Shown in pieces: positions 11,636-31,760 of a stretch of DNA of 40,279 nt. Numbering within the stretch: the first letter of the stretch is position 1; each line of letters begins with the position of its first letter. The stretch is from Deltaproteobacteria bacterium (GTDB taxonomy: Bacteria; Desulfobacterota; Desulfovibrionia; Desulfovibrionales; Desulfovibrionaceae). The stretch spans positions 1 through 40,279 of the forward strand of contig JAITGZ010000041.1 in the NCBI GenBank assembly GCA_031280335.1, in the 5' to 3' direction. Under the pieces are notes generated by a model, which was given only the letters and a program-made list of their open reading frames with translations, did not search any database and had not been told where the DNA came from. Both the position numbers and the translations under genes were made by a program.

Positions 11636-12928
11636 TTATTTCAGAGCGGCTTGCTCCGCGTCCGCCCCAATCATGATTTTCAGCACCTCCTCGTCTGTGG
11701 CGTGCATGCCTACGCTGGCCAGGCGGCCCACGCTGCGGATGGTCTCTTCCACATCCTGTTGCACAATGCCTTCGCCAGGAGAAAAGGAGTGGCTGCTCAT
11801 GGCCAGATCGTGGGCCATAATGGCGGCATCCAAGGCCGAGGCGATTTTTGCCGCGCAGGAGGGTTTTGCTCCGTCGCAGACAATGCCGGAGACATTGGCC
11901 AAGGTGTTGGTTATGGTATCCGTGATTTGTTTGAAATTGCCGCCGCTCAGCCAGGTAATTGCCGCCCCGCTGCCACAGGCCGCGCTTACCGCGCCGCAGT
12001 AAGCCGAAAGTTTGCCGATGCCGGATTTTTGATGGATGGCGATGAGGTTGCTGACCAGGAGGGCGCGGTATAACTTTTCTTGAGACAGGTTGAACTCCCT
12101 GGCATATTCAATAATAGGCAGAGAAACGGCCATGCCCTGGTTGCCGCTGCCCGAGTTGATGACAACCGGCAGCTCGCACCCGCTCATACGGGCATCGGAA
12201 CCGGCGGCGGCCCTGGCCTTGGCCCGGTTGCGCACGTCATCGCCTCGGCTGACCAGAAGCGTCCGCCCCACTCCGGCACCGTAGTTTCCGTGCAGTCCCT
12301 CCTCGGAAATATTCAGATTGCAGACGATTTGGCGATCCAGCACGTCGCGCGTCCAGGCGAGATCGCTGGTTTCGGCGAATTCCAGTATGCCGGCGACAGA
12401 CATGAAATCACGGCGGTGATCTTCCCGTTTGGCCGGTATATACGGGCCTCCGGCCAGAATGACGCCATCTTTTTCCTGGCGCACCACATTGGTATGGCTT
12501 TCGGCAATCTCTACCACCGCCTCATGCTCTTCCGCCCTGGCGGTCATGATAATGTGCAGGTTTTCCGACCCCGGCAGCAGTTCCACCCGGCAGAACCCTG
12601 AGTCCGCAAGTTCTTTGGCCCGCTCCACATGTTCCGGCCGCACACCGGAAAGCACCTCCAGCTTCCTGTCCGGGTCGCCGCCAAGAGCGCCCAGAATGGC
12701 CGCAATTTCCATGCCCTTCTGTCCGCCTGAGTTTGGCACAACCACGCCTTTGACGTTTTTAACAATATTGCCGCTGCAGGCCGCGTACAGGTTTTGAGGC
12801 TCACATCCCAGCAGACGGGTGGCCAGGGCACCGGCCAAGGCAACGGCGATGGGCTCCGTGCAGCCCAGGGCAGGCACCAGTTCTTCGTGCAGGATGTTGA
12901 CATATTGCCGGCAAAGGACAGCGTCCAT
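11636..12928 (-). CDS. UPF0597 / CyuA(YhaM)-type L-cysteine desulfidase homologue (serine dehydratase alpha-like)
   Basis: 430 aa. LVPALGCTEPIAVALAGA near the N-terminus and a Gly/Ala/Cys-rich core (GSGNQG, SAYCGAVSAACG) are typical of the family. It starts 4 nt after the NrfD-like gene ends. Confidence 0.75.
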   Translation of the reverse strand: MDAVLCRQYVNILHEELVPALGCTEPIAVALAGALATRLLGCEPQNLYAACSGNIVKNVKGVVVPNSGGQKGMEIAAILGALGGDPDRKLEVLSGVRPEHVERAKELADSGFCRVELLPGSENLHIIMTARAEEHEAVVEIAESHTNVVRQEKDGVILAGGPYIPAKREDHRRDFMSVAGILEFAETSDLAWTRDVLDRQIVCNLNISEEGLHGNYGAGVGRTLLVSRGDDVRNRAKARAAAGSDARMSGCELPVVINSGSGNQGMAVSLPIIEYAREFNLSQEKLYRALLVSNLIAIHQKSGIGKLSAYCGAVSAACGSGAAITWLSGGNFKQITDTITNTLANVSGIVCDGAKPSCAAKIASALDAAIMAHDLAMSSHSFSPGEGIVQQDVEETIRSVGRLASVGMHATDEEVLKIMIGADAEQAALK

Positions 12929-12932
12929 ACGT

Positions 12933-13919
12933 TTACCCGCTTATGCGCCAAGCGATTTGGGCAGTGGCGATCGCAAGCCCGATGCCCCCTATGCAAACGC
13001 GTGTTTCCATATGCGAGGGGGTGTATGATATCCTCGCTTGCCATTGGGCATAGGGCGCGGGCAGGCGGTTCTCCCGCTGGAGTTCCAGCATCATCCGTCT
13101 CTTTTCCCAGACCAGCAAGGCAATGGCCCCCAGGGCGGCGGGCCGGATCATAAAAACGGCCGGAGTATAAAGGCTCAGGAGTGCCGCGCCCGCCACGGCG
13201 AGGTCCGCGCAAAGCGCCCAGGAAAGGCGGGAGAGCGGCGGGGAGTCTTCAGGGTGTTTCAAGGCGAGCCTGGAGGCGCAATGCGTTAGTGCGGCCAGCA
13301 AGGAGAGGCCGAGAAAAAGCTTGGGAGCCGCGCTGGATATGGCGAGGCAACTGAGCAGGCCGGCCCCGCCGCAGGCGGCGCGGATCAACACTTCCAGAGC
13401 CAGGAACGGCTTGCCTTCGCCATTGCCGGCCAGGAGCAGCGCATGTGTCAGCAAAAAAGCGCCGGATGCGATTATGGAGCATATGGCCCAGGGCAGTCCC
13501 GGCGTCAGATTGCGGGCGCTGTAAACTACGCCCGCCATGACCAGTATGGCGTTCAGACAGAAGAGGTAAAAATCCCAGGTCATGGGAGACCCGGGATTTT
13601 TACCAAGAATCAGGAGAGGGCTGCGGAGGGGTTTGCCCAGATCCGCCGCAAGCAGGAGGCCGCCTCCCACAAGGCAGCCCATCGCCAGGGCGGGTGCCGC
13701 AGCAGGCATCACATTGGTGGCAAGGCGGCTTAAGCCCGCCAGAAGCAGCAGACCGCCTGCCAATGACCCCAAGGTAAAGAACCCCTGAATATACAGGCCC
13801 CAGGGGACGCGATCCGACAGGGCCGTGGCATTCAATCCGGCTGCCATCTGCCGCCGCAGCGCATGGGCACCGGCCAGCGCGGCCAGAAGGGCAAGGCACA
13901 GCGATATCCAGAAAAACAT
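12933..13919 (-). CDS. NrfD/PsrC-family polytopic membrane subunit
   Basis: RVPWGLYIQGFFTLGSLAGG and ADLGKPLRSPLLILGKNPGSPMTWD match NrfD-family hallmarks, and the product has multiple TM segments. The ATG at 13919 has GGAGG 5-6 nt upstream; the track start at 13982 overlaps the tautomerase gene. Confidence 0.75.
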   Translation of the reverse strand: MFFWISLCLALLAALAGAHALRRQMAAGLNATALSDRVPWGLYIQGFFTLGSLAGGLLLLAGLSRLATNVMPAAAPALAMGCLVGGGLLLAADLGKPLRSPLLILGKNPGSPMTWDFYLFCLNAILVMAGVVYSARNLTPGLPWAICSIIASGAFLLTHALLLAGNGEGKPFLALEVLIRAACGGAGLLSCLAISSAAPKLFLGLSLLAALTHCASRLALKHPEDSPPLSRLSWALCADLAVAGAALLSLYTPAVFMIRPAALGAIALLVWEKRRMMLELQRENRLPAPYAQWQARISYTPSHMETRVCIGGIGLAIATAQIAWRISG

Positions 13920-13962
13920 AAGGCCTCCGTACGGTCGGGAAAAAAAGTAAATCAGTATTTCC

Positions 13963-14163
13963 TCAACGTTTGGACCAGTCAATGTCGCTCGCCAGTTCTC
14001 CGCCAGTGGACCAGTTTTCCGTTTCGTAGTCCGTGAACAGGACGGTAATATTGGGGCGGCGTTTTTTAGCGATGCGCTCCACGCTGTCGGTAATTTCTTT
14101 GGCCAACTGGGCCTTTTGCTCGTGTGTGCATCCTTTCCAGAGTTCTACTTTGATGATGGGCAT
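13963..14163 (-). CDS. 4-oxalocrotonate tautomerase family protein
   Basis: 66 aa. MPIIKVELWKG has Pro right after Met (the catalytic Pro1 of the tautomerase superfamily), and the size is typical of the family. Confidence 0.75.
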   Translation of the reverse strand: MPIIKVELWKGCTHEQKAQLAKEITDSVERIAKKRRPNITVLFTDYETENWSTGGELASDIDWSKR

Positions 14164-14233
14164 AAGGTATTGTCCTTTGTCTTTTGTAATGTTTCAATGG
14201 TGAGATTGGGCAGTCAATTTACTTTAAAATGCT

Positions 14234-14860
14234 CTAATATTGCGGTGTTGCTCCGGGCAGGCATCTGTACCATACCGCAGGTTCTGTGCCCAGTTCCGGC
14301 CGCAGCCTGGAAGCATCGTGCCTGCCCAGCAGTCGCGAGATTTTAGAATCTTGATCCTCCATGTCGCCAAAGACGCGCGCGGCTGTGGGGCAAGCCTCCA
14401 CGCAGCCGGGCTCCCTCCCCTGGGCGCGGCGGGCGCGGCAGAAATCGCACTTCGCCACCGTGCCGGGTTCGAATTTTTTGCGGGCAAGGATTTCGTAGGG
14501 CGTGGGTTCCTCGTCCGGCCAATAGTTTCTGAAGGTCCAGAGAAAACGGCGAGCCTCATAAGGGCAGGCTTGCATACAGGCCCGGCAGCCAATGCAGGTG
14601 CCGGCATCGATCATCACCGCGCCGTCGGCCTCACGGCGGGTCGCCCCGGTGGGACAGGCGCGCAGACAGGGGGCGACGGCGCAGTGCATACACAGCACGG
14701 GCAGGGTATGCAGTCTGGAGTGCGGATAGGGGCCGTTTTCGTATTTAAGTACCCGGCTGAACAGAACCCCGGCCGGGGCACCCTGAATCTGGCGGCAGAT
14801 CATGGCGCAGGCCCCGCAGCCGATGCACTTTTGCAGGTCAATGAGCATTCCGACGCGCAT
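14234..14860 (-). CDS. 4Fe-4S ferredoxin-type electron-transfer subunit (DmsB/PsrB-like)
   Basis: 208 aa with four Cys clusters (CIGCGACAMIC, CMHCAVAPCLRACP, CIGCRACMQACP, CDFC...CVEACP). There is no N-terminal signal or Tat motif. Confidence 0.85.
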   Translation of the reverse strand: MRVGMLIDLQKCIGCGACAMICRQIQGAPAGVLFSRVLKYENGPYPHSRLHTLPVLCMHCAVAPCLRACPTGATRREADGAVMIDAGTCIGCRACMQACPYEARRFLWTFRNYWPDEEPTPYEILARKKFEPGTVAKCDFCRARRAQGREPGCVEACPTAARVFGDMEDQDSKISRLLGRHDASRLRPELGTEPAVWYRCLPGATPQY

Positions 14861-14877
14861 GGCGTACCTTCAGCGCC

Positions 14878-16224: not shown

Positions 16225-16290
16225 GTGTCCTCCATGGAAATATTTTTTTGGGAAACTCCCTGACAGTACGGCTTCCCGCGTTTCGCACAT

Positions 16291-16356
16291 GTTTTCAGCC
16301 TCTTTGCGGCTGAAAAACAACAGGGGGGCTGGGGGGAATTATTCCCTTCCCGGTGG
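16291..16356. repeat. hairpin repeat (family 2 modules) inside the operon
   Basis: ttttcagcc-tctttgc-ggctgaaaa hairpin plus ggggggaattattccc palindrome. The same two modules occur in inverted order at 27140-27207. Confidence 0.7.
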
Positions 16357-16391
16357 TGTTAGGGCAGATACTTGAATTTAATCATCCTTTT

Positions 16392-17408
16392 CTAAAAAAC
16401 AATGACGCTTCTGCCCAGTACTTTGCCGGCGGCCAGGCGTTCAGCGGCCTCGTTGAGTCCCGTGAGAGGGTATTGTTCCGTTACGCAGGGCGTGAGGAGA
16501 CCCTGGCGGACCAAGTCCACGGCATCGGTTACGCACTGTCTGGTCATGCCCAGGGAACCTTTGATGTTGATTTCTTTGAACATGGTCTGCCCCACCGGAA
16601 TGGAGAGGCTTTGATCCGTGGAGCCGACCAGGGCATACACCCCGCCCTTGCGCAGGGCGGCGGCCGAGATGTTGAAACTCTCCTGGCTGACCACATAATC
16701 AATAACCGCGTCCACGCCTTTGCCGCCGGTCAGGCGCAGGGTTTCCTGGAGCAGGTCTTTTTCCCGTGCATTGATGGTTTCGGCCGCGCCGAATTCACGG
16801 GCTTTGTCGAGTTTTTCTTTGGAACGCGCTGTGGCTATGACGCGGCATCCCGCCAGGCGCGCGATCTGTACCCCGTGCAGTCCAAGCCCCCCCACGCCGT
16901 AGATCAGCACGGTATCCGCAAGCCGCACCTGCGCCTGATCGCGTATGGCGTGCAGAGAGGTACAGATGGCATCGGGAATGGCGGCGGCGTCTGTAAAGCT
17001 GATGGTTTCGGGCAGGAGAGCCAATTGGTCTTCTTTGACCGTTACCAATTCAGCATGGCCGCCGGCGCACTCAAAACCCGTGCGAATCAGCCGCACGCAT
17101 AGGTTTTCGTGCCCGGAACGGCAGGCCGGGCAGCTTTTGCAGACATCGTACATATACACGACCACGCGGTCACCGGGGCTGCGGGCGCTCACGCCTGTGC
17201 CCACGGCCTCCACCACTCCGGCGATTTCATGTCCGGGGATATGGGGGAGCGTCAAGGCGGGGTTGCGTCCGGCGCGGATTTTCAGATCCCCGGGGCACAG
17301 GGCCGAGGCCTTGACCCGTACCAGAACCTCACCCGGACCGGGCAAGGGATCGGGCACATCCTCAAAGGCAAAGGGTTCGCCGAATTTTTTGATCAGGGCT
17401 GCTTTCAT
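16392..17408 (-). CDS. zinc-dependent medium-chain alcohol dehydrogenase (butanediol/threonine dehydrogenase-like)
   Basis: 338 aa. Catalytic-Zn ligands lie in ALCPGD and PGHEIAG, the structural-Zn motif is CKSCPACRSGHENLC, and the NAD fold is IYGVGGLG. Confidence 0.85.
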   Translation of the reverse strand: MKAALIKKFGEPFAFEDVPDPLPGPGEVLVRVKASALCPGDLKIRAGRNPALTLPHIPGHEIAGVVEAVGTGVSARSPGDRVVVYMYDVCKSCPACRSGHENLCVRLIRTGFECAGGHAELVTVKEDQLALLPETISFTDAAAIPDAICTSLHAIRDQAQVRLADTVLIYGVGGLGLHGVQIARLAGCRVIATARSKEKLDKAREFGAAETINAREKDLLQETLRLTGGKGVDAVIDYVVSQESFNISAAALRKGGVYALVGSTDQSLSIPVGQTMFKEINIKGSLGMTRQCVTDAVDLVRQGLLTPCVTEQYPLTGLNEAAERLAAGKVLGRSVIVF

Positions 17409-17488
17409 CAGAATGTCCTTGTAAAAATGCTTTGGAATGGTTTAACTTTGAGATCATACATGATCGGAACCCGCCATATTCAACATGT

Positions 17489-20116
17489 TCATTTCGAAAA
17501 TACTCCGGGCTGGCGGCCGATCGGGTACACCTTGACCTTGGGGGAGTTATCCAGGCCGCCGGAAATGGGATCCAGGTTTTCCGCTTCTTCTGCGGGCAGG
17601 AGTATGTTGAACCAAGCTCCTCCAGCTGGCATGACCGGGTTTATATAGTGTTCGTTGTAACCGCCGTAATTGCCGGGTATGCCCAGCACCTTGGGGTGGA
17701 TAAGCCCGGTAAGGCGCAGCTTGCCCCTAGTCTTGCCGTGCATGGACTCCACCCAGACTTCCTGACCGTCGTCCAGGGATTTTTCCTTGGCGGTGGCCGG
17801 GTGTATATGGATAAACATCTCGTAAGGGTCATCCTCGCGCAGCTCGTTGATCCAGGGATTGGCCATGTTGCCGCCTGTACCGTGCAGGCGGAAGCCGGTC
17901 TTCCAGTTGATGACGTAAAGATCGTATTCCGGCGGCGCTTCCCGGACATGGCTGGGGAACCAGAAGGGCACACCCGTGTAGTAGGCGAAAAAGTCTTTTT
18001 CCTCATTCACATAAGCGGGGTGGCGTATGCCGGCCTTGCGGAGATTTTCCCGCAGCTTCTTTGCGGTGCGCGGCAGACGCTCGAAATAGAAGGGGTGCCG
18101 TGTGGCGCTGCCCGGCCAATAGAAATAGTTGTAGCCTTTTTTGCCGGTGGCCGTGTATTTGTATAACTGCCCGGCCGCCTGGGCGGAGCGGTAGCTGTGC
18201 CCGTCGCCGAAGAGTTCGGCAATGAGGCGATCCCAGATATCCTCCAGGGGGTACTCCCGCTCCGGGTCAAGCCGGTGTTTTTCCGACAGGCGGTTCATCC
18301 GGTTGATCAAGCTGTGCATTTCCGGCAGGAATCCTCCCGCTCGGGCCAGGTCGTACAGTATCTGGTCGCTGCTTTTGGTGTCAAAGCGGCGGGGCACGGG
18401 ATTGCGCGCCAGGATCATTTCCAGCCCGCGCAGATCATCGTCAATGCTCTGTAAAGGCGGTTTGTAGATACGGATGCCGTCTTTTTCCAGAAAATGCGAG
18501 ACCGGCAGGATGATATCCGCAAGGCAGGAGGTTTCGTCAAAGTTGATGTTGATGCTGACCACCAGCGGCACCTTGCTCATGGCCTGGATCCAAAGATCCT
18601 GGTCGCTGATGCTGCGCACCGGGTTGGCACCCGCGAAGATAAAGAGTTCGATATCGTAGTCCAGATGATAACGTTTGGGGTCAAGAATATTACGTACCAC
18701 GATGGGCGGGGTGGTGTGCTTGTGCGGGAAGAACTCCCCGCCGTCGATATGGTGGGGGGGGAAGTGGAAGTCGCGGGGCACGGCCTCAACAATGGGCGTG
18801 ACCGTGCCGTCTTCGTCAGGCCGCAGTATATCGGGGCAAGGTCCGGGGCGGCTGCCTCCCGTACAGGCACCGGGCAGTTCCATGGCCCCCATGAGCATGT
18901 TGATGATCTTTACGCAGAGATCAAAATGGGTGCCGTTGCGGTGCGAGCAGGCACCCCGGCCGGAACCGCCCATCTGCACGGGCCGGAAGGGGAATTCAAA
19001 ACCGTCAATGACAATGGTCTTGCCCAGGCAGGCGTGTTCCACAAACTCCCTGGTGACCGTGCGGATGTCTTCCGCCGTAATGCCGGTGATTTTTTCCGCC
19101 CATTCCGGCGTGTATAAACGCATGCCGTTTTTCAGCAAACGAAAGCCTGTGCTGACTGGTTCTCCTTCCACTTCCAGGTCGGCGTCCAGTATGGGGTCCC
19201 GCACCTGGTCAAAAGGACGTGGTCCGTCGCTGCCCAGCATGAGCGGCTTGCCGCTTTGCGCATCACGCAGATAGGTGCCGTCAGGCGAGATGAGGTATGG
19301 CGCGTTGGTGCGTTCTTTCAGAAAATGCTCATCGTACGTGCCCAGCTCAAAGAGTATGCCGTGGATCATGGCCAGGGCAAAGGCCAGCTCCGTGCCCGGC
19401 AGAATGGGCAGCCACCTGTGGGCCTTGGAGGCTTCGGGCGAATGGCGCGGGTCAATGACCACCAGCTTCATGCCGCGTTCCAGGGCCCTGGTCAGACGTG
19501 CGGTGGAGTGCGGGCAGACAGTGTTGCCGCCCACAGTGCGTCCCGGCGCGATGAGATAGGTGCAGTATTCCAGGTCGGCAATCTGCTCCGGGTGCTGCGC
19601 GTGGACCAGGTTGGAAGCGAAGTGGATGGGGCAGAGTATGCCGTGGGAAGGCACATTGTTGGGCGTGCCGAAGGCTGTTGCAAAGATGCTGCCGTGGGCC
19701 ATACCCCCGGTCTCCGGGTTTTTGAGCATGATTTCACGCGCGAAAAGTTCATCGCAAACGCCCCAGCCCTCCATAAAGGCCATCTTGCGGGGGTCTGAAG
19801 CGCGTATTGCCCGCATTTTGGAGCCGATGAGCGCATATGCCTCATCCCAGGAAATGGCCTCCCAACCCGGATCTTCCGTGAGTCCTTTTTTGGGGTTGGT
19901 GCGGCGCATGGGGGAGCGGACGCGCTTGGGATCGTAATAACCCGGAATGGAGGCCAGCCCGCCCCGCATACAGAGTTTGCCCCGGTTGGTGGGCGTATCC
20001 GGGTCGCCGATGGTTTCCGTGACCACGCCGTCTTCCATGCGTATGAGCATGCCGCAGTCGTTCTGCAGGCACATGGCGCACCAACCCTTCAGCCAAACGG
20101 TATTTCCTTCAGACAT
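17489..20116 (-). CDS. molybdopterin (Mo/W-bisPGD) oxidoreductase catalytic subunit, PsrA/PhsA/acetylene-hydratase-like, no Tat signal
   Basis: 875 aa. The N-terminal FS0 motif CAMCLQNDC-x27-C starts at residue ~13 with no RRxFLK leader. FGTPNNVPSHGILC resembles the Cys-ligand segment of PsrA-type enzymes. Confidence 0.85.
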   Translation of the reverse strand: MSEGNTVWLKGWCAMCLQNDCGMLIRMEDGVVTETIGDPDTPTNRGKLCMRGGLASIPGYYDPKRVRSPMRRTNPKKGLTEDPGWEAISWDEAYALIGSKMRAIRASDPRKMAFMEGWGVCDELFAREIMLKNPETGGMAHGSIFATAFGTPNNVPSHGILCPIHFASNLVHAQHPEQIADLEYCTYLIAPGRTVGGNTVCPHSTARLTRALERGMKLVVIDPRHSPEASKAHRWLPILPGTELAFALAMIHGILFELGTYDEHFLKERTNAPYLISPDGTYLRDAQSGKPLMLGSDGPRPFDQVRDPILDADLEVEGEPVSTGFRLLKNGMRLYTPEWAEKITGITAEDIRTVTREFVEHACLGKTIVIDGFEFPFRPVQMGGSGRGACSHRNGTHFDLCVKIINMLMGAMELPGACTGGSRPGPCPDILRPDEDGTVTPIVEAVPRDFHFPPHHIDGGEFFPHKHTTPPIVVRNILDPKRYHLDYDIELFIFAGANPVRSISDQDLWIQAMSKVPLVVSININFDETSCLADIILPVSHFLEKDGIRIYKPPLQSIDDDLRGLEMILARNPVPRRFDTKSSDQILYDLARAGGFLPEMHSLINRMNRLSEKHRLDPEREYPLEDIWDRLIAELFGDGHSYRSAQAAGQLYKYTATGKKGYNYFYWPGSATRHPFYFERLPRTAKKLRENLRKAGIRHPAYVNEEKDFFAYYTGVPFWFPSHVREAPPEYDLYVINWKTGFRLHGTGGNMANPWINELREDDPYEMFIHIHPATAKEKSLDDGQEVWVESMHGKTRGKLRLTGLIHPKVLGIPGNYGGYNEHYINPVMPAGGAWFNILLPAEEAENLDPISGGLDNSPKVKVYPIGRQPGVFSK

Positions 20117-21945: not shown

Positions 21946-21963
21946 TCGGAATCCTTTCCTGTA

Positions 21964-22195
21964 GAGGAAACACTGATTAATTCGGGGCTTCGCCCCGAAC
22001 CCCGCTGGGGGGAATAAGAAAGGGGCATGTTCGCCCAGGCGCAGCCTTATCCTTGCGCTATCCGTTAGGGTGCCTTGCCGCCTAAGGGATAGCGCAAGGG
22101 GGCAAAAGGGGCATGTTTGCCCAGGCGTTGCTTTACCTCTGCCATCCCTCTGCACAACGGCAAGGCACCCTCAAGAGAATAAATCAGCGTTTCCC
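21964..22195. mobile_element. MITE-like element, copy 2, carrying a nested ~86-bp insertion
   Basis: It has the same ends as copies 1 and 3 and TA on both sides (21962-21963, 22196-22197). The internal extra segment (about 22041-22126) has a perfect 12-bp stem, cttgcgctatcc...ggatagcgcaag, and duplicates aaaggggcatgtt.gcccaggcg. Confidence 0.75.
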
Positions 22196-23355: not shown

Positions 23356-24612
23356 TCAAAAAACCTCGCATCCCGGCAGGCCGCAGGATATGAGATGGTC
23401 ACTGGGAAAATTTGTGATGATTTCACAGCCGTTTTTGGTAACCACCACCTCCTCTTCAATGCGGGCCGCGCCGGAGCCGTCAGCCGAACCGCACCATGTT
23501 TCCACGGCAAAGACCATGCCTTCCTTGAGTTCCGTGGGATAGTCGAAGTTGAAGCGGCGGGACAGGATGGGCCTCTCCCATAGGGAAAGGCCGATGCCGT
23601 GCCCGTACTGCAAAAGGTAGGCTTCATGTTCGTCTTTTAGGCCAAAGGCTTCAGGCGCCGGCCAGGCGGCGGCCACATCGGCCGTGCTGGCCCCGGGTTT
23701 GATGCGGTCAATGGAGTCCGAGAGCCAGCGTGAAGCTTTTTCGTACGCCTCCATCTGGTATTTGTTTGGTTTGCCGCAGATGAAAGTTCGGTAATAACAG
23801 GTGCGGTAGCCGTTAAAGGAGTGCATGATGTCCAGAAAAACCATGTCGCCCGGCTGAATGATGCGGTCCGCAAAAGTGTGGGAGTGGGGCATGCCCCGTG
23901 GTCCGGAATTGGCGTTTACCGCCTCTACCCATTCGGAACCCAGACGGTACAGGGAGTCGTTGGCAACGGCCACCAGCTCGTTTTCACGGCGTCCGGGCCG
24001 TATGGCCCGGACTATGTCCGTATAGGCGGCGTCCACCATGGCGGCGGCCTGCTTAAGCAAATCTATTTCATCCGGGGTTTTGATCTCCCTGGCGTCCAGC
24101 AGGGCCTGCATGCCGTCCCTGACCTTGATGCCTTCATCCTGGAGCGCCTGCAGCATGGACATTTCCATAAGATCCACGCCCAGCGGCTCGTTGTCGCAAC
24201 CCATGCCGGCGAGGGTTTCTTTTATTTGGCGCGCGAAGGTCTTCTGCACCTCCATGGAGGGAGGCAGCGCGCCGCACATGTTGGAGATGGGCGGAGAAAG
24301 GCGGTCTTCCAGCCAGGGGCAGGTGAGGCGTTTGGCCGGCACGGCCGGGTCAAAGAGCCAGGGTTTACCTTTGGCCGGGCACAGGGCGTAACGGTTCATC
24401 TTGTCGCGGCACCACTGGCCGATATGGGTGCCCGTCACATAGCGGATATTGTCGAAGTTGAAGACCAGCACAGCGCCCAGGCCGTGGGCGCGCAGGGCTT
24501 CCTGCGCCCTGGCGATGCGCTCGCGGATAAGGCGCCGGAAATCAACCCCGGCTTCCCAGTCTTTGTCCATAGTTCCGAAACGGGCTGTGGCATGGGGGTG
24601 GTTGTAGAGCAT
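23356..24612 (-). CDS. M24 pita-bread-fold hydrolase (creatinase / Xaa-Pro peptidase / DoeA / DddP superfamily)
   Basis: 418 aa with an N-terminal creatinase-like domain and a C-terminal M24 core (PGDMVFLD, YGHGIGL, FAVETW, ARIEEE). Its AAGGAG RBS overlaps the stop codon of the E2 gene (12-nt gap). Confidence 0.8.
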   Translation of the reverse strand: MLYNHPHATARFGTMDKDWEAGVDFRRLIRERIARAQEALRAHGLGAVLVFNFDNIRYVTGTHIGQWCRDKMNRYALCPAKGKPWLFDPAVPAKRLTCPWLEDRLSPPISNMCGALPPSMEVQKTFARQIKETLAGMGCDNEPLGVDLMEMSMLQALQDEGIKVRDGMQALLDAREIKTPDEIDLLKQAAAMVDAAYTDIVRAIRPGRRENELVAVANDSLYRLGSEWVEAVNANSGPRGMPHSHTFADRIIQPGDMVFLDIMHSFNGYRTCYYRTFICGKPNKYQMEAYEKASRWLSDSIDRIKPGASTADVAAAWPAPEAFGLKDEHEAYLLQYGHGIGLSLWERPILSRRFNFDYPTELKEGMVFAVETWCGSADGSGAARIEEEVVVTKNGCEIITNFPSDHLISCGLPGCEVF

Positions 24613-25935: not shown

Positions 25936-25960
25936 ACGCGCCTCCATCCTCCGCCGGGGG

Positions 25961-26959
25961 TTACGCGGTTCCGCCGGGCCGGACCATCTCCCTGATTTTT
26001 GCCGCAATGGATTTTTCATCGGGAATCAGGGGGAACTCCAGGGCCGGGCTGAAGGGCATGGGGACATCCGCCGTGCCCAGGCGTTCAATGGGGGCATCCA
26101 GATCATAGAAAACTTCCGGCATGATGCGCAAGGCGATTTCGCCGCTGATGCCAAAGCCGGTATGCCCTTCATCCACTATGAGAAGTCTGCCGGTTTTCTT
26201 GACGGAATGGATGATGCTGTTCGTATCCAGCGGCACGATGGTACGCAGGTCGATGAGCTCCACTGAAATACCTTCCGCCTCCAGAGAGGCGGCGGCCTTT
26301 TCCGCCTTGTTCACCATCATGGAGAGCGCCGCCACGGTGATGTCCCCGCCCTCTCTTACCATACGGGCCTTGCCGAAAGGAATGGGCGCGCCTTCGTCTT
26401 TGTCCGGAACATCGTTGAATTTGACGGTGTAGAGCATCTTGTGTTCAAAAAAAATGACCGGGTTATTGTCGCGTATGGCGGTCTTGAGCAAGCCTTTGGC
26501 CTCTCCGGCGGTGGCGGGCAGAACCACCTTAAGGCCGGGACAGTGGGCCATCCAGGCGTGCGGACTCTGGGAATGCTGGGCTGCGGAGGAACGCCCCCCG
26601 CCCAGGGGCATACGGACGACCAGGGGCACGCACGCCTGCCCGCCGGACATATATGAAATTTTAGCGGCCTGGTTGCAAATCTGATCCATGGCCACTGTCA
26701 GAAAATCCGCAAACATGAGTTCCACCACCGGCCGGCAGCCGGCAATGGCCGCTCCCACGCCCAAACCCACAATACCTGCCTCGGAAATGGGGGAGTCCTT
26801 GCAGCGCAGGTCGCCGTATTTTTCCAAAAGACCCACGGTGCATTTGAAATTGCCGCCTATAACCCCCACATCCTCTCCAATGACAAATATGGTTCCATCC
26901 CTGGCCATTTCCTCGTCCAGGGCTTCTTGTATCGCCTCTCTGTACATGATTTCGCGCAT
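25961..26959 (-). CDS. acoB: TPP-dependent (acetoin/2-oxoacid) dehydrogenase E1 beta subunit
   Basis: 332 aa. MREIMYREAIQEALDEEMARD, GEDVG..GG and the transketolase-like C-terminal domain are typical of E1 beta. GGAGG lies 9 nt upstream. Confidence 0.85.
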   Translation of the reverse strand: MREIMYREAIQEALDEEMARDGTIFVIGEDVGVIGGNFKCTVGLLEKYGDLRCKDSPISEAGIVGLGVGAAIAGCRPVVELMFADFLTVAMDQICNQAAKISYMSGGQACVPLVVRMPLGGGRSSAAQHSQSPHAWMAHCPGLKVVLPATAGEAKGLLKTAIRDNNPVIFFEHKMLYTVKFNDVPDKDEGAPIPFGKARMVREGGDITVAALSMMVNKAEKAAASLEAEGISVELIDLRTIVPLDTNSIIHSVKKTGRLLIVDEGHTGFGISGEIALRIMPEVFYDLDAPIERLGTADVPMPFSPALEFPLIPDEKSIAAKIREMVRPGGTA

Positions 26960-26994
26960 TGCGCATATCCTCCGGCGTCAGTTCTTGGGGGCTG

Positions 26995-27210
26995 CCGCCT
27001 TGAAAGCATTTTAAATTTGGGGCTATCGCCCCAAACCCCATCCGGGGGGAATCATTCCCCCCGGACCCCCTCTACATTGAGTCAAAGTTTAGGGTGCCGA
27101 GCAGGGTGCCTTAAAGTTAATATGCTCCAAACCCGCCATTCGTGGGGGAATGATTCCCCCACGAAACACCGCGTTCTTTTTTCAGCCGTCTTGCGGCTGA
27201 AAAAACGTGT
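26995..27210. repeat. cluster of family-2 hairpin repeats filling the E1alpha-E1beta intergenic gap
   Basis: Modules present: ttggggctatcgccccaa, ggggggaatcattcccccc, gtgggggaatgattcccccac and the 16-bp-stem hairpin ttttttcagccg-tcttg-cggctgaaaaaa. The first part is the reverse complement of the 9364/37511 copies. Confidence 0.8.
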
Positions 27211-27222
27211 GGGCGCGGCGCT

Positions 27223-28179
27223 TTAGTCCGCGAAGACATCGGTATAAGCTTCCGCAGCATCGGCGTAAGCGCTTTTTTCCGCAAAGGAGCAGGCTGCCGC
27301 GATCTCTTCATCCACGCTGTCGCGGATGGTTTTGATTTTCAGAGCGGTAAGCAGACCGGCTTTTTCCAGCCTGTCCAGAGGGTCTCTGGCTTTCCATTCC
27401 GCTACCTCGCTTTCCGGACGGTACACGCCAGGGTCGCCGACATGGTGCCCCTGATGGCGATAGGTCAAACACTCCACCAGGCTCGGCCCCTTGCCCTCGC
27501 GGGCGCGGGCCACAGCCAAGCCTACCTCTTTGTACACGGCGAAGACATCATTGCCGTCGATGGTGCTGCCAGGGATGCCGTAGCCCTCGGCTCTTTTGGA
27601 GAGCCGAGGTTCTTTGGTGACTTTGCGTATATCCACAGAAATGCCGTACAGGTTGTTTTCTATTACAAACACCACAGGCAGATCCCAGGCTGCGGCCATG
27701 TTGAGGCTTTCGTGGAAGACACCTTCGTTGGCGGCGGAATCGCCGAAAAAGGAAAGGGTTACGGACTCATTTTGCAGCAGTCTGGAGGCATACGCCGCGC
27801 CCACGGCAATGGGTATGCCGCCGCCCACAATACCGTTGGCACCCAAAATGCCTTTGTCCAGGGCCATGATGTGCATGGAGCCGCCCTTGCCTTTGGAATA
27901 GCCCGTGCCCTTGCCGAGAATCTCCGCCATCATGCGCTTGAGATCCGCCCCGCTGGCGACCAGATGCCCGTGTCCCCGATGCGTGCTGGCAATGTAGTCG
28001 GAATCCTTTAAGGCTCCGCAGGCTCCGGCGGCCACGGCCTCCTGCCCCAGGTACAGATGGGCAAGCCCAGGCATCAGCCCGCGCTTGTAAAACTCAAAGA
28101 CTTCTTCCTCGAAACGCCTGGTGCGGTACATGACCGTATAGAATTTTCCGGCCAGATCCCTGTTTTCATCCAGACGCAT
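27223..28179 (-). CDS. acoA: TPP-dependent (acetoin/2-oxoacid) dehydrogenase E1 alpha subunit
   Basis: 318 aa. RFEEEVFEFYKRGLMPGLAHLYLGQEA, HRGHGH and the TPP-binding GDSAANEGVFHESLN are present. GGAGG precedes the ATG at 28179. Confidence 0.85.
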   Translation of the reverse strand: MRLDENRDLAGKFYTVMYRTRRFEEEVFEFYKRGLMPGLAHLYLGQEAVAAGACGALKDSDYIASTHRGHGHLVASGADLKRMMAEILGKGTGYSKGKGGSMHIMALDKGILGANGIVGGGIPIAVGAAYASRLLQNESVTLSFFGDSAANEGVFHESLNMAAAWDLPVVFVIENNLYGISVDIRKVTKEPRLSKRAEGYGIPGSTIDGNDVFAVYKEVGLAVARAREGKGPSLVECLTYRHQGHHVGDPGVYRPESEVAEWKARDPLDRLEKAGLLTALKIKTIRDSVDEEIAAACSFAEKSAYADAAEAYTDVFAD

Positions 28180-28340: not shown

Positions 28341-28492
28341 TTTTTCCGCCTGCAGTGAGCCGCCATGTGGCAGTCATTACCTTGCTTTTGTTTGCGCGGT
28401 CGCAGAAGTTTCTTGACTGACTATGCGGCGGGGTAAATCAGCGCCGGATTTGTTTCCCATGCCCGTGCGCACATGCGCGGTTCTGGTGGACA

Positions 28493-28508
28493 TGTGCCAC
28501 TTGGCACA
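28493..28508. promoter_or_regulatory. palindrome TGTGCCA-CT-TGGCACA, candidate enhancer (UAS) or operator for the AcoR-type activator
   Basis: 7-bp inverted arms lie ~160 bp upstream of the -24/-12 element (minus-strand sense) and ~30 nt upstream of the activator ATG. A second palindrome, GTGCGCAC, is at 28466-28473. Confidence 0.4.
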
Positions 28509-28536
28509 GTATGCTGGCACAAACAAAGGAAGGGTT

Positions 28537-30519
28537 ATGTATTCCGACGAGACGCGCATGAAGATACGCGAGGCCAGGGAACAATTCCGCCGGGGCCTGT
28601 CTGTGGACGAGAGCTGTGTACGCCGTGAGATTCTGGAATCCTGGCGGCGTTCCCGCGCCTATGGCCTGGACTTTGACAAGGGCGACAAGCGCCTTATACC
28701 GCCGGAGGAGCTGCGCGGGAGAATTGAGGAGCGGCGCGTCCTTTACGACCTCGCGGTGCCGGTTATGGAGCAGCTTTACGACTTCACCACCGGCTCAGGC
28801 TTTCTTTCCTCCTTGAGCGACGAGGAGGGCTACCTGCTTAAGACCATAGGAGATGAAGAGATCATGGCCGCAGCCCTCCGTAACAAGTTTCAAGAGGGCT
28901 GCAACCGCAACGAACGCCGCCTGGGCACCAACGGCATTGGCACGGCCCTGGTTACGGGCAGGCCGATTCAGGTCTTTGCGGAAGAACACTATTATGAACT
29001 GCACCAACAATGGGTATGCTCCGGCGCGCCCATTTCCGATCACGAAGGGCGCACGGTGGGGGTGTTCTGTCTCACCGGTCTGTGCGGGCAAGTTTCTTTT
29101 CACACCCTTGGCTTGGCGGTTTCCGTGGCCAATTCCATCAGCCAGCAGTTGGTCATGCGCAAGGCTTACGACGAAATCGCCCGCATCCAGCATCAGACGA
29201 AGGCCATTATCGAAAGCGTACCTTCGGGTATTCTGCTGCTCAATCAGGCCCTTAAGGTCATTCAGATGAACAGCCAGGCCGCCGCCCTGCTCATGCTGCC
29301 GGAAACGCGCATTCTTGGCAGGAGACTCCACGAGATTATCGGCGGGCACCCTCTGGATGCCGGAACCCTGTATGAAGCGCTCAATGACAGAAGTATCGCC
29401 ATTGAGCGGCACGGGCAGGTTCTGCGCCTGATGTTTTCTTTGAACCGCGCGGATGCGGAAAATATTGTGCTTACCTTTGCCCGTACGGAATCCCTGCACA
29501 AAAAGGTACACCACATCATCGGCTCAGAGGCGCGTTTCACCTTTGATGACATTGTGGGACAAAGCCCGGCCCTGCGCAATGCCGTTTCCCTGGCGCGTAT
29601 CGCCGCAGGCAACGAATCCACGGTGTTGCTGACCGGGGAGAGCGGCACGGGCAAGGAACTCTTCGCTCACTCCATCCATAATGCCGGCCCGCGTGAAAAA
29701 GGCCCCTTCATTGCCATCAACTGCGCCGCCCTGCCCAAAAGCTTGGTGGAAAGCGAACTCTTCGGCTATGAAAGCGGCTCCTTCACCGGCGCAAGGCGCG
29801 AAGGTGCCGCCGGAAAGTTTGAGCTGGCCAACGGGGGAACCATCTTTTTGGATGAAATCGGCGACATGCCCCTGGATGTGCAGGCCAGCCTGCTCCGTGT
29901 GCTGCAGAACCGCGAAGTCACTCGCCTGGGCGGCAGCCGGGCCGTCAAGGTAGATGTGCGCATTATTGCCGCTACCAACAGAAACCTGGCCGCCGCCGTG
30001 GAGAATGGCGCCTTTCGTGATGACCTGTATTACCGCTTGAATGTGTTCGGCATACATATACCCCCCCTGCGCGAGAGGGCGGGCGATATCCGCCTTCTGG
30101 CCGATCACTTCCTGCGCAAGTATGCCAGATTTTCCGCCCGGCCCGCGCAAGGCTTCAGCGAGGACGCTTATCTTGCTCTGGAAGAACACGTCTGGCGGGG
30201 TAATACCAGGGAGCTGGAGAATGCCGTTGAACGGGTCAGCTATATGGCGCGTACGCCGATCATTTCCAGGGAATGCCTGCATTTTTACCGCCCGTCCCCC
30301 ATTCCTGCCGGGCATGTGAGAGGGCGCAGCCCGGAGGATCCGCCGGTACGGGCAGCCGGCGGCGTGAAAGACAGCGCCGAAGCCGTGGAGCGCGCCTTGG
30401 CCGCCACCCGCGGCAATGTGCGCCGCGCCGCCGGCCTTTTGGGCGTGAGCCGCCGTACTCTGTACAGGAGGATTGCGCGCTACGGCTTTGACCCCGCGTC
30501 GTTACGCCGCAGGGTATAG
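28537..30519 (+). CDS. acoR: sigma-54-dependent transcriptional activator, AcoR family (GAF-like sensor, PAS, AAA+, Fis HTH)
   Basis: The ATG at 28537 follows AAAGGAAGGG. Features: AcoR-type sensor block LGTNGIGTALVTGRPIQVFAEEHY...WVCSGAPI, AAA+ motifs GESGTGKE, ESELFGYESGSFTGA and FLDEIGDM, and C-terminal HTH GNVRRAAGLLGVSRRTLYRRI. Confidence 0.9.
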   Translation: MYSDETRMKIREAREQFRRGLSVDESCVRREILESWRRSRAYGLDFDKGDKRLIPPEELRGRIEERRVLYDLAVPVMEQLYDFTTGSGFLSSLSDEEGYLLKTIGDEEIMAAALRNKFQEGCNRNERRLGTNGIGTALVTGRPIQVFAEEHYYELHQQWVCSGAPISDHEGRTVGVFCLTGLCGQVSFHTLGLAVSVANSISQQLVMRKAYDEIARIQHQTKAIIESVPSGILLLNQALKVIQMNSQAAALLMLPETRILGRRLHEIIGGHPLDAGTLYEALNDRSIAIERHGQVLRLMFSLNRADAENIVLTFARTESLHKKVHHIIGSEARFTFDDIVGQSPALRNAVSLARIAAGNESTVLLTGESGTGKELFAHSIHNAGPREKGPFIAINCAALPKSLVESELFGYESGSFTGARREGAAGKFELANGGTIFLDEIGDMPLDVQASLLRVLQNREVTRLGGSRAVKVDVRIIAATNRNLAAAVENGAFRDDLYYRLNVFGIHIPPLRERAGDIRLLADHFLRKYARFSARPAQGFSEDAYLALEEHVWRGNTRELENAVERVSYMARTPIISRECLHFYRPSPIPAGHVRGRSPEDPPVRAAGGVKDSAEAVERALAATRGNVRRAAGLLGVSRRTLYRRIARYGFDPASLRRRV

Positions 30520-30524
30520 ATTGT

Positions 30525-30540
30525 TGGCATACCGTTTGCA
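30525..30540 (+). promoter_or_regulatory. sigma-54 (-24/-12) promoter for the Fe-ADH gene
   Basis: TGGCATaccgtTTGCA has canonical GG-N10-GC spacing and matches the consensus except C->T at the last -24 position. It lies 108 nt upstream of the ATG at 30648. Confidence 0.7.
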
Positions 30541-30647
30541 CTCGTCCGTACATGGGGGCGGGGCCGGGTACTCGGCTTTGATGCCCTCTCTGCGCTCGTC
30601 CGTTCACGCGGCGGGGACTGAACCCGATCATTCAAGGAAGGTATGCC

Positions 30648-31760
30648 ATGAAATTGCTGACACTGAAACCGGAGATGCACCTGTATGATACATGCAAGGA
30701 ATTTCATGCGGAGATCGGGTTCAGGGATACAGACCTGATCATCACCAACAGGTATATTTTTGAGCCGTATTTTTCCGGCCTGCCCTGTAAAGCCAGGATA
30801 ATCTGGAGTGAAGACTACGGTTCCGGGGAGCCTTCCGATGAAATGGTCGAAAAGATGTTACCCGATACACAGGGCCCATTCCGGAGGGTGATTGCCATCG
30901 GCGGGGGGGCCATCATTGATATTGCCAAATTGTTTGCCCTGCGGCGGGTATCCCCGGTGCAGGACCTTTTCGACCGCAAGCTGGAGATTGTCAGGAATAA
31001 GGAGCTGATTGTCGCGCCCACCACCTGCGGCACAGGGAGTGAAGTTACCAATATCTCCATTCTGGAAATGAAAAGCCGCCGTACCAAGCTGGGTCTGGCA
31101 GCGGACGAACTTTACGCGGATCGTGCGGCACTCGTCCCCGAACTGCTTTCCGGCCTGCCGTTCAAATTTTTCGCCACCAGTTCCGTGGATGCCCTGATCC
31201 ATGCCTTTGAAGCCTCTCTTTCTCCCAAGGCTACCCCTTACACTTCGCTTTTCGGGCATAAAGCCATAGAGATTATTCTCAAAGGCTACAGGGATATCGC
31301 CAATAAGGGAGAAAAAGCCCGCCTGCCCCTGTTGAGGGATTTTCTCATCGCCAGCAACTATGCCGGGGTAGCTTTCGGTTCTGCCGGCTGCGCGGCGGTA
31401 CATGCCATGAGTTACCCCTTGAGCGCCGCCTACCATGTGCCTCATGGCGAAGCCAATTACGCCATATTTATGGGGGTATTCAAAACATACCAGCGTAAAA
31501 ATCCGCATGGCGGCATCAGGGCGTTCAATGCCTTTCTGGCTGGAATTCTTGAATGCGCTCCTGACACCGTCTATGAAGAGTTGGAAAAATTGCTTGCGGC
31601 GGTAATCCCCTTGAAAGCTTTGCGGGAGTATCAGTTAACCCGGCGGGATCTTTCTGATTTTACTCGCAGCGTCATGGAGCGGCAGGGCCGGCTTATGGCC
31701 AACAACTACACGGAATTGGATGAAAAAACCGTTCTGGGCATTTATGAGTCCTTATATTAG
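30648..31760 (+). CDS. iron-containing alcohol dehydrogenase, 4-hydroxybutyrate dehydrogenase (4HbD)-like
   Basis: 370 aa. MKLLTLKP..., GEPSDEM, IAIGGGAIIDIAK, PTTCGTGSEVTN and HVPHGEANY are present. Length and these blocks resemble the ~371-aa NAD-dependent 4-hydroxybutyrate dehydrogenase subgroup, from memory and not by database search. Confidence 0.75.
   Translation: MKLLTLKPEMHLYDTCKEFHAEIGFRDTDLIITNRYIFEPYFSGLPCKARIIWSEDYGSGEPSDEMVEKMLPDTQGPFRRVIAIGGGAIIDIAKLFALRRVSPVQDLFDRKLEIVRNKELIVAPTTCGTGSEVTNISILEMKSRRTKLGLAADELYADRAALVPELLSGLPFKFFATSSVDALIHAFEASLSPKATPYTSLFGHKAIEIILKGYRDIANKGEKARLPLLRDFLIASNYAGVAFGSAGCAAVHAMSYPLSAAYHVPHGEANYAIFMGVFKTYQRKNPHGGIRAFNAFLAGILECAPDTVYEELEKLLAAVIPLKALREYQLTRRDLSDFTRSVMERQGRLMANNYTELDEKTVLGIYESLY

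Follow-up and report, generated by a model that had tools for sequence, protein, structure and literature searches.

A putative sigma-54-controlled catabolic cluster that joins two conserved gene modules in a member of the Desulfovibrionaceae

The window analysed here is a 40,279-nucleotide (nt) stretch of contig JAITGZ010000041.1 (assembly GCA_031280335.1) from a deltaproteobacterium of the family Desulfovibrionaceae. It carries 14 co-directional genes on the minus strand, together with a divergent sigma-54 activator gene and a gene for an iron-dependent alcohol dehydrogenase (Fe-ADH). Judged from sequence comparisons, this gene set appears to be a genuine and widely conserved catabolic cluster under sigma-54 control, in which two conserved modules seem to have been joined, and not an acetoin operon with inserts. 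The reading that we tentatively prefer, with a little less than even confidence, is that of one sigma-54-activated regulon for the anaerobic oxidative breakdown of a hydroxylated aromatic (polyphenolic, plant-type) acid. The acid would be imported by a tripartite ATP-independent periplasmic (TRAP) transporter, oxidised by a molybdenum (Mo) enzyme, and then cleaved by a thiamine diphosphate (ThDP)/lipoyl complex.

Gene content and conserved modules

All 16 named proteins were confirmed by the open reading frame (ORF) map and by Pfam/NCBIfam profile searches, so that domains, coordinates and strands agree with the first-pass annotation of this DNA. The products of the 14-gene cluster, in the order of transcription, followed by the activator and the Fe-ADH, are:

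27223-28179, minus strand: E1alpha, ThDP-dependent (Pfam E1_dh, 277 bits; NCBIfam PDH_E1_alph_y, 352 bits, under the cut-off of 394)
25961-26959, minus strand: E1beta (Pfam Transket_pyr and Transketolase_C; NCBIfam PRK09212, 391 bits, over the cut-off of 321)
24625 to about 25947, minus strand: full-length E2 acyltransferase (Biotin_lipoyl, E3_binding, 2-oxoacid_dh); start probably ATG at 25947 or 25935
23356-24612, minus strand: atypical M24 metalloenzyme (ligands D261, C272, H338, E371, E386)
22195-23256, minus strand: DctP, TRAP solute-binding protein (Pfam DctP); the start at 23256 gives a twin-arginine translocation (Tat) signal, RRKFLK
21439-21945, minus strand: DctQ, TRAP small membrane subunit (Pfam DctQ); start at 21945
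20135-21442, minus strand: DctM, TRAP large membrane subunit (Pfam DctM)
17489-20116, minus strand: molybdenum/tungsten (Mo/W) bis(pyranopterin guanine dinucleotide) (bisPGD) catalytic subunit of 875 amino acids (aa), with an N-terminal 4Fe-4S motif and Cys162 as metal ligand; cytoplasmic
16392-17408, minus strand: medium-chain zinc-dependent alcohol dehydrogenase (Zn-ADH; Pfam/NCBIfam profiles)
14878 to about 16290, minus strand: M20 metallohydrolase, ArgE/DapE-type; start at 16290 or 16224
14234-14860, minus strand: four-cluster 4Fe-4S electron-transfer (FeS) subunit, DsrO/ArrB/PadC-like; no signal peptide
13963-14163, minus strand: 66-aa protein of the 4-oxalocrotonate tautomerase (4-OT) family, Pro1 retained
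12933-13919, minus strand: NrfD/DsrP-like membrane anchor, quinone-side (Pfam NrfD, 28 bits; NCBIfam DsrP, 42 bits), with about 8 transmembrane (TM) helices; start at 13919
11636-12928, minus strand: SDH_alpha (UPF0597/CyuA-like) protein (Pfam SDH_alpha, 225 bits), 4 nt past the anchor gene
28423-30519, plus strand: GAF-PAS-AAA+-HTH_8 sigma-54 activator (Pfam Sigma54_activat, 237 bits; GAF, PAS_4, HTH_8), divergent from the operon
30648-31760, plus strand: Fe-ADH (Pfam Fe-ADH and ADH_Fe_C; best NCBIfam match, 111 bits)

The genes are co-conserved, as the first-pass annotation had expected, and gene-neighbourhood comparison shows that they recur in other genomes as two modules. One consists of the activator, E1alpha, E1beta, E2 and M24 genes and is found in Desulfovibrio inopinatus, in a Rhodocyclaceae metagenome-assembled genome (MAG) and in many soil metagenome contigs. 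These genes are treated as a module because they are arranged together in D. inopinatus, where an activator (39% identical to that of the window over its full length) is divergent from genes for E1alpha, E1beta, E2, E3, M24 (77% identity), a bicupin and a beta-hydroxyacid dehydrogenase, in that order. Amongst 80 metagenome loci, 10-14 have E1/E2 immediately upstream of M24.

The other module consists of DctPQM, the Mo, FeS and membrane anchor subunits, Zn-ADH, 4-OT and M20, and recurs in uncultured anaerobes (loci L001, L084, L085, L086 and L087, and contig P0020). The Mo proteins of these loci are 54-74% identical to that of the window, and their recurring partners are DctPQM, FeS, a 338-aa Zn-ADH, a 66-71-aa tautomerase, and M20 or M24. 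The tautomerase is absent from L086 alone, a contig that ends within the M20 gene; M20 itself is 81% identical in L086 and 62-65% identical in L001 and L084. In each of these loci the Zn-ADH gene adjoins or is near the Mo gene, and in most of them it immediately precedes the tautomerase gene. Since it travels with Mo and 4-OT, Zn-ADH belongs with the Mo enzyme and not with E1/E2, while M24 travels with E1/E2; the cluster is thus poorly described as an ordinary acetoin/butanediol module with inserts, which is how it was first seen.

The membrane partner in the second module is either an NrfD-like anchor or a membrane-bound ferredoxin of 310-334 aa. Homologues of the NrfD-like anchor adjoin Mo-FeS in L003, L010 and L011. 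The loci without an anchor (L085, 13257-14201; L001, 15924-16871; L084, 12033-12965) have the ferredoxin as a substitute, with about 5 TM helices at the N-terminus and a 2x[4Fe-4S] domain at the C-terminus, which may be an alternative membrane electron exit.

Both modules occur together in the window, L001, L009 (Chloroflexia), L011 (a Spirochaetes MAG, with E1alpha 73% and E1beta 76% identical) and L013 (Actinomycetota). Co-location in at least five lineages of different phyla points to a functional link between the modules, and conservation of the arrangement in other phyla places it far beyond chance.

The CyuA-like gene was seen in none of the related clusters examined and is thus regarded as an accessory of this genome; the sole NCBIfam match of its product is sda_alpha (21.7 bits, cut-off 243). 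A sulfur-containing substrate, which had been suggested on the basis of this gene only, is not supported. A nitroreductase-family flavoprotein (10960-11523, minus strand) is encoded by a possible fifteenth gene. It is co-directional and 112 nt downstream of the CyuA-like gene, which may take the end of the cluster to 10960. There is a separate sigma-70-like match for it at 11576-11547, and a nitroreductase is present again in the clusters of L011 and the P0020 contig. Housekeeping genes, identified by profile searches, flank the cluster, which delimits an island of about 21 kb. Elsewhere in the window, an ORF at 33448-34032 (minus strand) begins with a His-Thr repeat (HTHTHTHTHT, about 33970-34032) that reflects a CA/TG microsatellite; without a Pfam match, it is probably not a gene. 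The G+C content is 0.445 at the left end of the window (1-2000) and about 0.58-0.60 elsewhere.

The molybdenum enzyme and the hydrolases

A first search with the Mo subunit returned 1229 homologues at E <= 0.001, and more than 580 were confirmed in species-representative genomes; none is informatively named, and an exact-sequence look-up found the subunit on no other contig. Neither the Mo nor the FeS subunit has a Tat or Sec (general secretory) signal, and a TM scan of the anchor gives about 8 helices. On these grounds the Mo complex is placed on the cytoplasmic face of the membrane, in electronic contact with the quinone pool. All 45 aligned homologues have Cys162, which aligns with Cys173, the Mo ligand of Thermus polysulfide reductase PsrA. 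There was no PDB match between the window Mo subunit and the pyrogallol hydroxytransferase structure at E <= 1e-5.

The closest named relative was found through gene context. In Aromatoleum toluclasticum, a full-length homologue (29% identity) is encoded immediately upstream of genes for an FeS protein, a membrane protein, FdhD, PadE, PadG, PadH and PadI. All four of these Pad proteins exceed their NCBIfam equivalog cut-offs, which identifies the homologue as PadB, the catalytic subunit of phenylacetyl-CoA:acceptor oxidoreductase. In a neighbour-joining tree, the 85 homologues used fall into two supergroups: one, with PadD-type anchors, includes true PadB, and its sister contains the window protein and all members linked to E1/E2. 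By its identity and its position in the tree, the Mo subunit is a homologue of PadB and not an orthologue. Relatives of the Mo enzyme are repeatedly paired with ThDP enzymes.

The M24 protein is unusual in its metal site. Alignment with Pyrococcus prolidase and DddP shows that four of the five dinuclear-site ligands are kept (D261, H338, E371, E386), whereas the second Asp is replaced by Cys272. Of 127 family members, 125 have this Cys; the other two are the M24 proteins of L085 and L087, which are creatinase-like and metal-less. The site therefore fits neither the canonical Asp-Asp-His-Glu-Glu set nor the creatinase-type loss of all ligands. The family is very large and strongly conserved: it was found at 68-73% identity (given also as 68-85%) in more than 280 metagenome loci, and 6806 proteins match at E <= 1e-30. 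Genes that commonly neighbour M24 encode a beta-hydroxyacid dehydrogenase, a CobW-type GTPase and, immediately upstream, E1alpha-E1beta-(succinate-semialdehyde-dehydrogenase-like)-E2. Cys272 and the frequent CobW partner suggest that the metal site is a distinct one and that the reaction is probably not that of a peptidase. Scores against named models are far under the cut-offs: DddP, 113.9 bits (cut-off 600); DoeA_2, 92.1 (575); DoeA (ectoine_eutD), 62 (613); PepQ, 89.5 (630).

Creatine, ectoine and dimethylsulfoniopropionate had been put forward as first substrates to test. They were rejected as first candidates on the basis of these scores, of the Cys in place of a ligand Asp, and of the PDB matches of DctP, whose identities we presume.

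Nine M24 loci include a gene for a 725-aa Mo protein, for which acetylene hydratase is the best structural match (2E7Z, 359 bits). Operons that combine M24 (about 70% identical), the CobW-type GTPase and this protein were seen in soil, freshwater and Rhodocyclaceae contigs. Other contigs have the Cys-ligand M24 with a succinate-semialdehyde dehydrogenase, a fused E1alpha-beta, a VOC protein, E2, E3 and a beta-hydroxyacid dehydrogenase. Examples of both arrangements, which look like an uncharacterised system in its own right, are:

L151, 10001-14690: Cys-ligand M24 operon
L170, 4446-15699: Cys-ligand M24 operon
L100, L126, L129, L133, L135, L143 and L147: further Cys-ligand M24 operons

The M24 proteins of L085 (15515-16702) and L087 (15561-16748) are of another subfamily in which, as in creatinase, most metal ligands are gone (D to S, C to G, E to S), and the 'M24' slot is consequently held by two non-equivalent enzymes. 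Most of the recurrent 'families' of unannotated ORFs beside M24 in the metagenome loci proved to be spurious antisense ORFs.

In the phloroglucinol pathway an isatin-hydrolase-like 'cyclase' acts as a retro-Claisen C-C hydrolase (PMC10470551). Because of this precedent, 'amidohydrolase' folds such as M24 and M20 are no proof of nitrogen in the substrate, and it was from these folds only that nitrogen had earlier been inferred. In the 4-OT family protein, the residues that we take to be the canonical Arg11 and Arg39 are not retained.

Transcriptional organisation

The Fe-ADH gene is preceded by a perfect -24/-12 match, TGGCATACCGTTTGCA (30525-30540, plus strand), in accordance with the first-pass annotation. 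The promoter proposed at the top of the cluster, GGGAACGCCTTTTGCA (28340-28325, minus strand), lies upstream of E1alpha, about 146 nt from its start codon; it keeps the GG-N10-GC spacing but, as read from the sequence, is two positions off consensus, so that it stands as a putative promoter. Further internal sigma-54 promoters are not indicated, as loose -24/-12 matches in the whole window are at chance (85, with 75 expected).

The 10-mer GTGAGCCGCC occurs upstream of both -24/-12 promoters (28355-28364 and 30445-30454), where about 0.08 such matches are expected, and could perhaps be part of the activator binding site. A shared upstream activator site for the two promoters was downgraded as a proposal, given that this single 10-mer is all they have in common.

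Several junctions are tight (4-25 nt or overlapping), as first noted: E2/M24 is 12 nt, with the M24 ribosome-binding site overlapping the E2 stop codon, DctM/Mo is 18 nt, M20/FeS 17 nt and NrfD/CyuA 4 nt. The DctM start overlaps the DctQ stop codon, although the junction reads GTGATG and not ATGA as had been given. The tightness does not extend to three spacers of 71-263 nt, namely E1alpha/E1beta (263 nt), DctP/DctQ (up to 249 nt) and Zn-ADH/M20 (71-167 nt), all of which contain palindromes that resemble repetitive extragenic palindromic (REP) elements. The features concerned are:

26960-27222, minus strand: structured E1alpha/E1beta spacer with REP-like palindromes (RNA fold z = -5.8 relative to shuffled sequence)
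27045-27061, 27144-27160, 16332-16348, 36475-36491 and 37558-37574: copies of the REP-like palindrome GGGGGAATNATTCCCCC (5 in the window, 0.08 expected)

Three of the five copies are intergenic within the operon, two of them in E1alpha/E1beta and one in Zn-ADH/M20. The DctP/DctQ spacer (21946-22194) contains two copies of the hairpin GGGC(A/G)AACATGCCC, each followed by a T-rich tail, a 13-bp inverted repeat (CCTTGCGCTATCC...GGATAGCGCAAGG), and an element GGGGTTCGGGGCGAAGCCCCGAA that resembles one in the E1alpha/E1beta spacer. Partial termination in this spacer may serve to raise DctP levels relative to DctQM. A perfect 17-bp hairpin (GGTAAAAATCCCGGGTC...GACCTGGGATTTTTACC; 13565-13604, minus strand) lies within the coding region of the NrfD-like anchor and is unusual for coding sequence.

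With three long structured spacers, the cluster could give rise to more than one transcript, which weighs against a single regulon, as does L086, the closest relative, in which the TRAP/Mo block has no E1/E2 module immediately upstream. The link between the modules thus seems facultative, and each can work apart. Both observations would also fit separate units lying side by side: an acetoin/pyruvate dehydrogenase and a cytoplasm-facing respiratory or detoxifying Mo enzyme (SoeABC-like or Psr/Phs-like), with TRAP and the hydrolases unrelated. The one sigma-54 promoter-like site for about 17 kb is in keeping with this arrangement, and so is the nature of the best family models, which are PhsA (208 bits) and ArrA (135 bits) for Mo and DsrO and ArrB for FeS. 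However, all these scores are far under the cut-offs (694 for PhsA), and the Mo subunit misses every named family model widely. Every close relative shows linkage of the Mo gene to TRAP, Zn-ADH, 4-OT and M20/M24, linkage to E1/E2 is seen in five lineages, and the short E2/M24, DctM/Mo and M20/FeS junctions run across module borders. Intrinsic terminator-like sites inside the operon are not above chance (28, with 20.5 +/- 5.1 expected). We therefore consider an assembly of unrelated units very unlikely.

Substrate, proposed route and related systems

The general scheme first proposed, with TRAP import, Mo-dependent oxidation linked to quinone and thiamine-dependent cleavage to an acyl-CoA, fits the comparative evidence (no signal peptides, an 8-TM anchor and Mo-ThDP pairing). 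As to the substrate class, polyphenols are suggested by what lies beside related Mo enzymes. In L088 (Mo 53% identical), TRAP-Mo-FeS-NrfD is directly preceded by genes for a short-chain dehydrogenase/reductase (SDR), a 3-hydroxyacyl-CoA-dehydrogenase-family protein (3HCDH) and a BKACE protein. The top structure match of this SDR is 5G4K (241 bits; the next is 191), which we take to be a Clostridium phloroglucinol reductase. SDR, 3HCDH and BKACE are the families of phloroglucinol reductase (PGR), TfD and TAL (PMC10470551). In L172 (Mo 50% identical), Mo-FeS-NrfD is about 4 kb from a homologue of the pyrogallol hydroxytransferase large subunit (1144 bits), and a transhydroxylase beta-subunit-like partner and a BKACE gene are also present. 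Amongst the loci examined before L172 was added, the PGR/TfD/TAL-like trio was found in L088 only. These two contexts speak for polyphenols rather than nitrogen or sulfur compounds.

Accessory genes in related clusters encode a UbiD decarboxylase, Amidohydro_2 proteins, cupins, and fumarate-reductase-like flavoproteins with small ferredoxins. The Amidohydro_2 family includes aromatic-acid decarboxylases. The DctP, DctQ and DctM genes stand together and the binding protein has a Tat export signal, so TRAP membership is clear; the best PDB matches of DctP are presumably aromatic-acid-binding TRAP proteins. TarP-type TRAP proteins bind lignin-derived acids (PMC3610893). D. inopinatus, which carries the E1/E2-M24 module, is a hydroxyhydroquinone degrader according to a reference cited in PMC5447228. 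The use of a ThDP/lipoyl complex by the window implies oxidative rather than reductive destabilisation of the ring.

Pairs of URO-D and B12-binding genes that are O-demethylase-like (methyltransferase/corrinoid protein) were seen in L001 (16971-18983) and L013 (13467-14177 and nearby), inside two Mo + E1/E2 clusters of unrelated phyla. They hint that methylated, perhaps methoxylated, derivatives feed the same pathway.

Several further points weigh against a polyphenolic acid. The substrate assignment derives wholly from homologues at 50-60% identity, and genes of the phloroglucinol pathway, decarboxylases and demethylases were not found in the window, nor were the other accessory genes named above. 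Profiles for E3 (Pfam Pyr_redox_2/Pyr_redox_dim) had no match in the window cluster, whereas L001, L013, L169 and L170 have an E3 gene. The identities presumed for 5G4K and for the DctP matches also count on this side. Moreover, the energetics of phenol oxidation with menaquinone as acceptor are less obvious for a sulfate reducer than for nitrate reducers.

A nitrogen-containing substrate would agree equally well with the M24, M20, creatininase and class-III aminotransferase genes that recur in related clusters, and with the opine-dehydrogenase-like and Opp genes found there. The substrate would then be a carboxylate with nitrogen and possibly sulfur (such as an amino acid with an N-acyl or amidino group, a compound of the ectoine/creatine type or an opine-like conjugate), which M24/M20 would deamidate or ring-open; the Mo enzyme would hydroxylate the skeleton and E1/E2 turn a 2-oxo acid into an acyl-CoA. 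Nearly all related clusters have an amidohydrolase-fold enzyme (M20, M24, metal-less creatinase-like M24 or creatininase), and in L085, L087 and the P0020 contig the gene immediately before Mo encodes a class-III aminotransferase. The P0020 contig also has octopine and saccharopine dehydrogenase genes, L003 combines an Opp-type peptide ABC transporter with M20, and the window itself encodes the CyuA-like deaminase/desulfidase. Nevertheless, the CyuA-like gene is not co-conserved, and there is no urease, transaminase or ammonia-handling gene in the window. The M24 protein, with its non-canonical Cys ligand, is far from DoeA, DddP and PepQ, and its commonest partners (beta-hydroxyacid dehydrogenase, CobW-type GTPase, succinate-semialdehyde dehydrogenase, E1/E2 and the acetylene-hydratase-like Mo protein) handle no nitrogen. 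Ectoine-binding TRAP proteins are not among the PDB matches of DctP, as we presume these entries to be. A nitrogen-containing substrate is accordingly judged unlikely.

We hold it equally improbable that the substrate is a non-aromatic (aliphatic or alicyclic) hydroxy- or keto-acid. Here Zn-ADH would make a ketone, the tautomerase and Mo enzyme would oxidise the adjacent carbon, giving an alpha-hydroxyketone or diketone, and an acetoin-type E1/E2 would split this to an acyl-CoA and an aldehyde for Fe-ADH, amounting to an O2-free alpha-oxidation of ketones. The activator is of the AcoR/DhaR-like GAF-PAS type, and such activators respond to small carbonyl compounds. Also in favour are the separate sigma-54 promoter of Fe-ADH, an aldehyde:ferredoxin oxidoreductase in L011, GFO/IDH/MocA (inositol-dehydrogenase-like) genes near M24 in 12 metagenome loci, and the presence in the D. 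inopinatus cluster of LplA and a radical-SAM (lipoate synthase-like) gene, as presumably in the acetoin operon of Pelobacter carbinolicus. The chemistry has a precedent in PadBCD, which converts -CH2-CO- to -CO-CO- (PMC5109826). A keto-acid, however, leaves unexplained both the pyrogallol-transhydroxylase and phloroglucinol-pathway neighbours of related Mo enzymes and the decarboxylase and demethylase-like accessory genes, and no acetoin-specific family model reaches its cut-off.

For a polyphenolic acid, the preferred substrate, the following route can be envisaged. Homology indicates that the acid would be taken up by TRAP. By analogy with PadBCD and from the topology, the cytoplasmic Mo/W enzyme might oxidise or hydroxylate an activated carbon with water as the oxygen source, and menaquinone would receive the electrons by way of the 4Fe-4S subunit and the anchor. 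Zn-ADH and the Pro1 tautomerase might interconvert hydroxy, keto and enol forms of an intermediate. E1/E2, drawing on an E3 encoded elsewhere, would cleave a 2-oxo or alpha-dicarbonyl (quinone-like) product to an acyl-CoA, for which Pad and Bqd are precedents. More speculatively, M24 and M20 could open the ring or trim the product, perhaps by C-C rather than amide hydrolysis, and the CyuA-like protein, nitroreductase and Fe-ADH could be genome-specific accessories. By analogy with RedR1, induction may depend on the sensing of a carbonyl or quinone intermediate by the GAF-PAS activator. In all of this, gene content, topology signals, family placement and co-conservation are established from the sequences, and the direction of electron flow, the sequence of steps and the substrate are deduced from them.

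A wider proposal, which we regard as doubtful, is that this is an unrecognised and widespread O2-independent strategy of strict anaerobes for cleaving rings or chains. A menaquinone-wired PadB-sister Mo/W enzyme would turn an enolisable or phenolic carbon into a quinone or alpha-dicarbonyl that the lipoyl E1/E2 cuts, and the Cys-ligand M24, whose relatives often have a CobW metallochaperone of their own, would found a non-peptidase class for hydroxyquinone-type intermediates. The mineralisation by strict anaerobes of polyphenols, and of other compounds recalcitrant in the absence of O2, is only partly known and bears on carbon storage in peat and sediment and on gut metabolism of plant phenolics. 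Entry points are offered by the large uncharacterised PadB-sister clade, its defined partner enzymes and the very large thiolate-site M24 family. Assignment of a substrate would annotate hundreds of MAGs of Thermodesulfobacteriota, Chloroflexota, Actinomycetota, Spirochaetota and Bacillota.

In the literature searched, no description of this gene set was found, in line with the first-pass annotation, nor of the PadB-sister clade or the Cys-ligand M24 family. All three thus appear undescribed, while the system is of a known kind, with an anaerobic Mo hydroxylase and ThDP-dependent cleavage under sigma-54 control. The acetoin system AcoABC(L)/AcoR shares with the window a heterotetrameric ThDP E1alpha/E1beta with lipoyl E2, a divergent GAF sigma-54 activator, a -24/-12 promoter and an alcohol dehydrogenase. 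The only match to an acetoin-specific model covers just the lipoyl domain (85 bits, cut-off 307), and AcoL is an E3, which the window cluster lacks. The alcohol dehydrogenase of the window is evolutionarily tied to the Mo enzyme and not to E1/E2, and its E1/E2 is tied to M24, a gene that, to our knowledge, canonical aco operons lack. Moreover, GAF sigma-54 architecture is not diagnostic for acetoin, since it is shared by RedR, DhaR and MimR-type regulators (PMC10084136).

The PadBCD/PadEFGHI system of Thauera/Aromatoleum phenylacetate degradation resembles the window in its homologous Mo-bisPGD (29%) and FeS (43%) subunits, the lack of an export signal and the presence of a membrane anchor. 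The logic is also alike: PadBCD oxidises an alpha-methylene to a 2-oxo group and a ThDP enzyme then forms benzoyl-CoA (PMC5109826), so that in both a Mo-made 2-oxo compound would undergo ThDP-dependent conversion to an acyl-CoA. In contrast, PadD has no similarity to the NrfD/DsrP-like anchor, the Pad ThDP partner is a ferredoxin-type 2-oxoacid oxidoreductase and not a lipoyl E1alpha-beta/E2 complex, and the CoA ligase PadJ has no counterpart, as profile searches of the window found neither a CoA ligase or transferase nor a PadE-I homologue. The window adds TRAP, Zn-ADH, 4-OT, M20 and M24. SoeABC has the same topology as the window enzyme (no signal peptides, NrfD-type anchor); a SoeABC-like sulfite dehydrogenase is disfavoured by the conserved linkage of the Mo gene to organic-acid catabolic genes.

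Genes of the gallate/pyrogallol to phloroglucinol route (Mo transhydroxylase; PGR, DPGC, TfD, TAL) adjoin homologues of the window Mo enzyme at 50-53% identity, and this route, like the window, has an amidohydrolase-like fold, there a C-C ring hydrolase (PMC10470551). In the resorcinol/hydroxyhydroquinone route of Aromatoleum anaerobium (RehLS, BtdLS, BqdLMS, RedR1/RedR2), a membrane-associated Mo hydroxylase acts together with a pyruvate dehydrogenase-like complex that cleaves the dearomatised ring (PMC10084136). As in the window, there are several -24/-12 promoters and GAF-PAS sigma-54 activators, and RedR1/2 have the same domain architecture as the window activator (PMC10084136). RehL, however, is of the Ser-ligated pyrogallol-transhydroxylase lineage, whereas the window Mo enzyme has the Cys ligand of the Psr/Arr/AH lineage, and neither a DoxX-type BtdS nor an E3 was seen in the window. 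The window E1alpha-beta/E2 and activator form a module orthologous to that of the hydroxyhydroquinone-degrading sulfate reducer D. inopinatus, and by analogy the cluster would be the strict-anaerobe counterpart of the oxidative resorcinol/hydroxyhydroquinone route.

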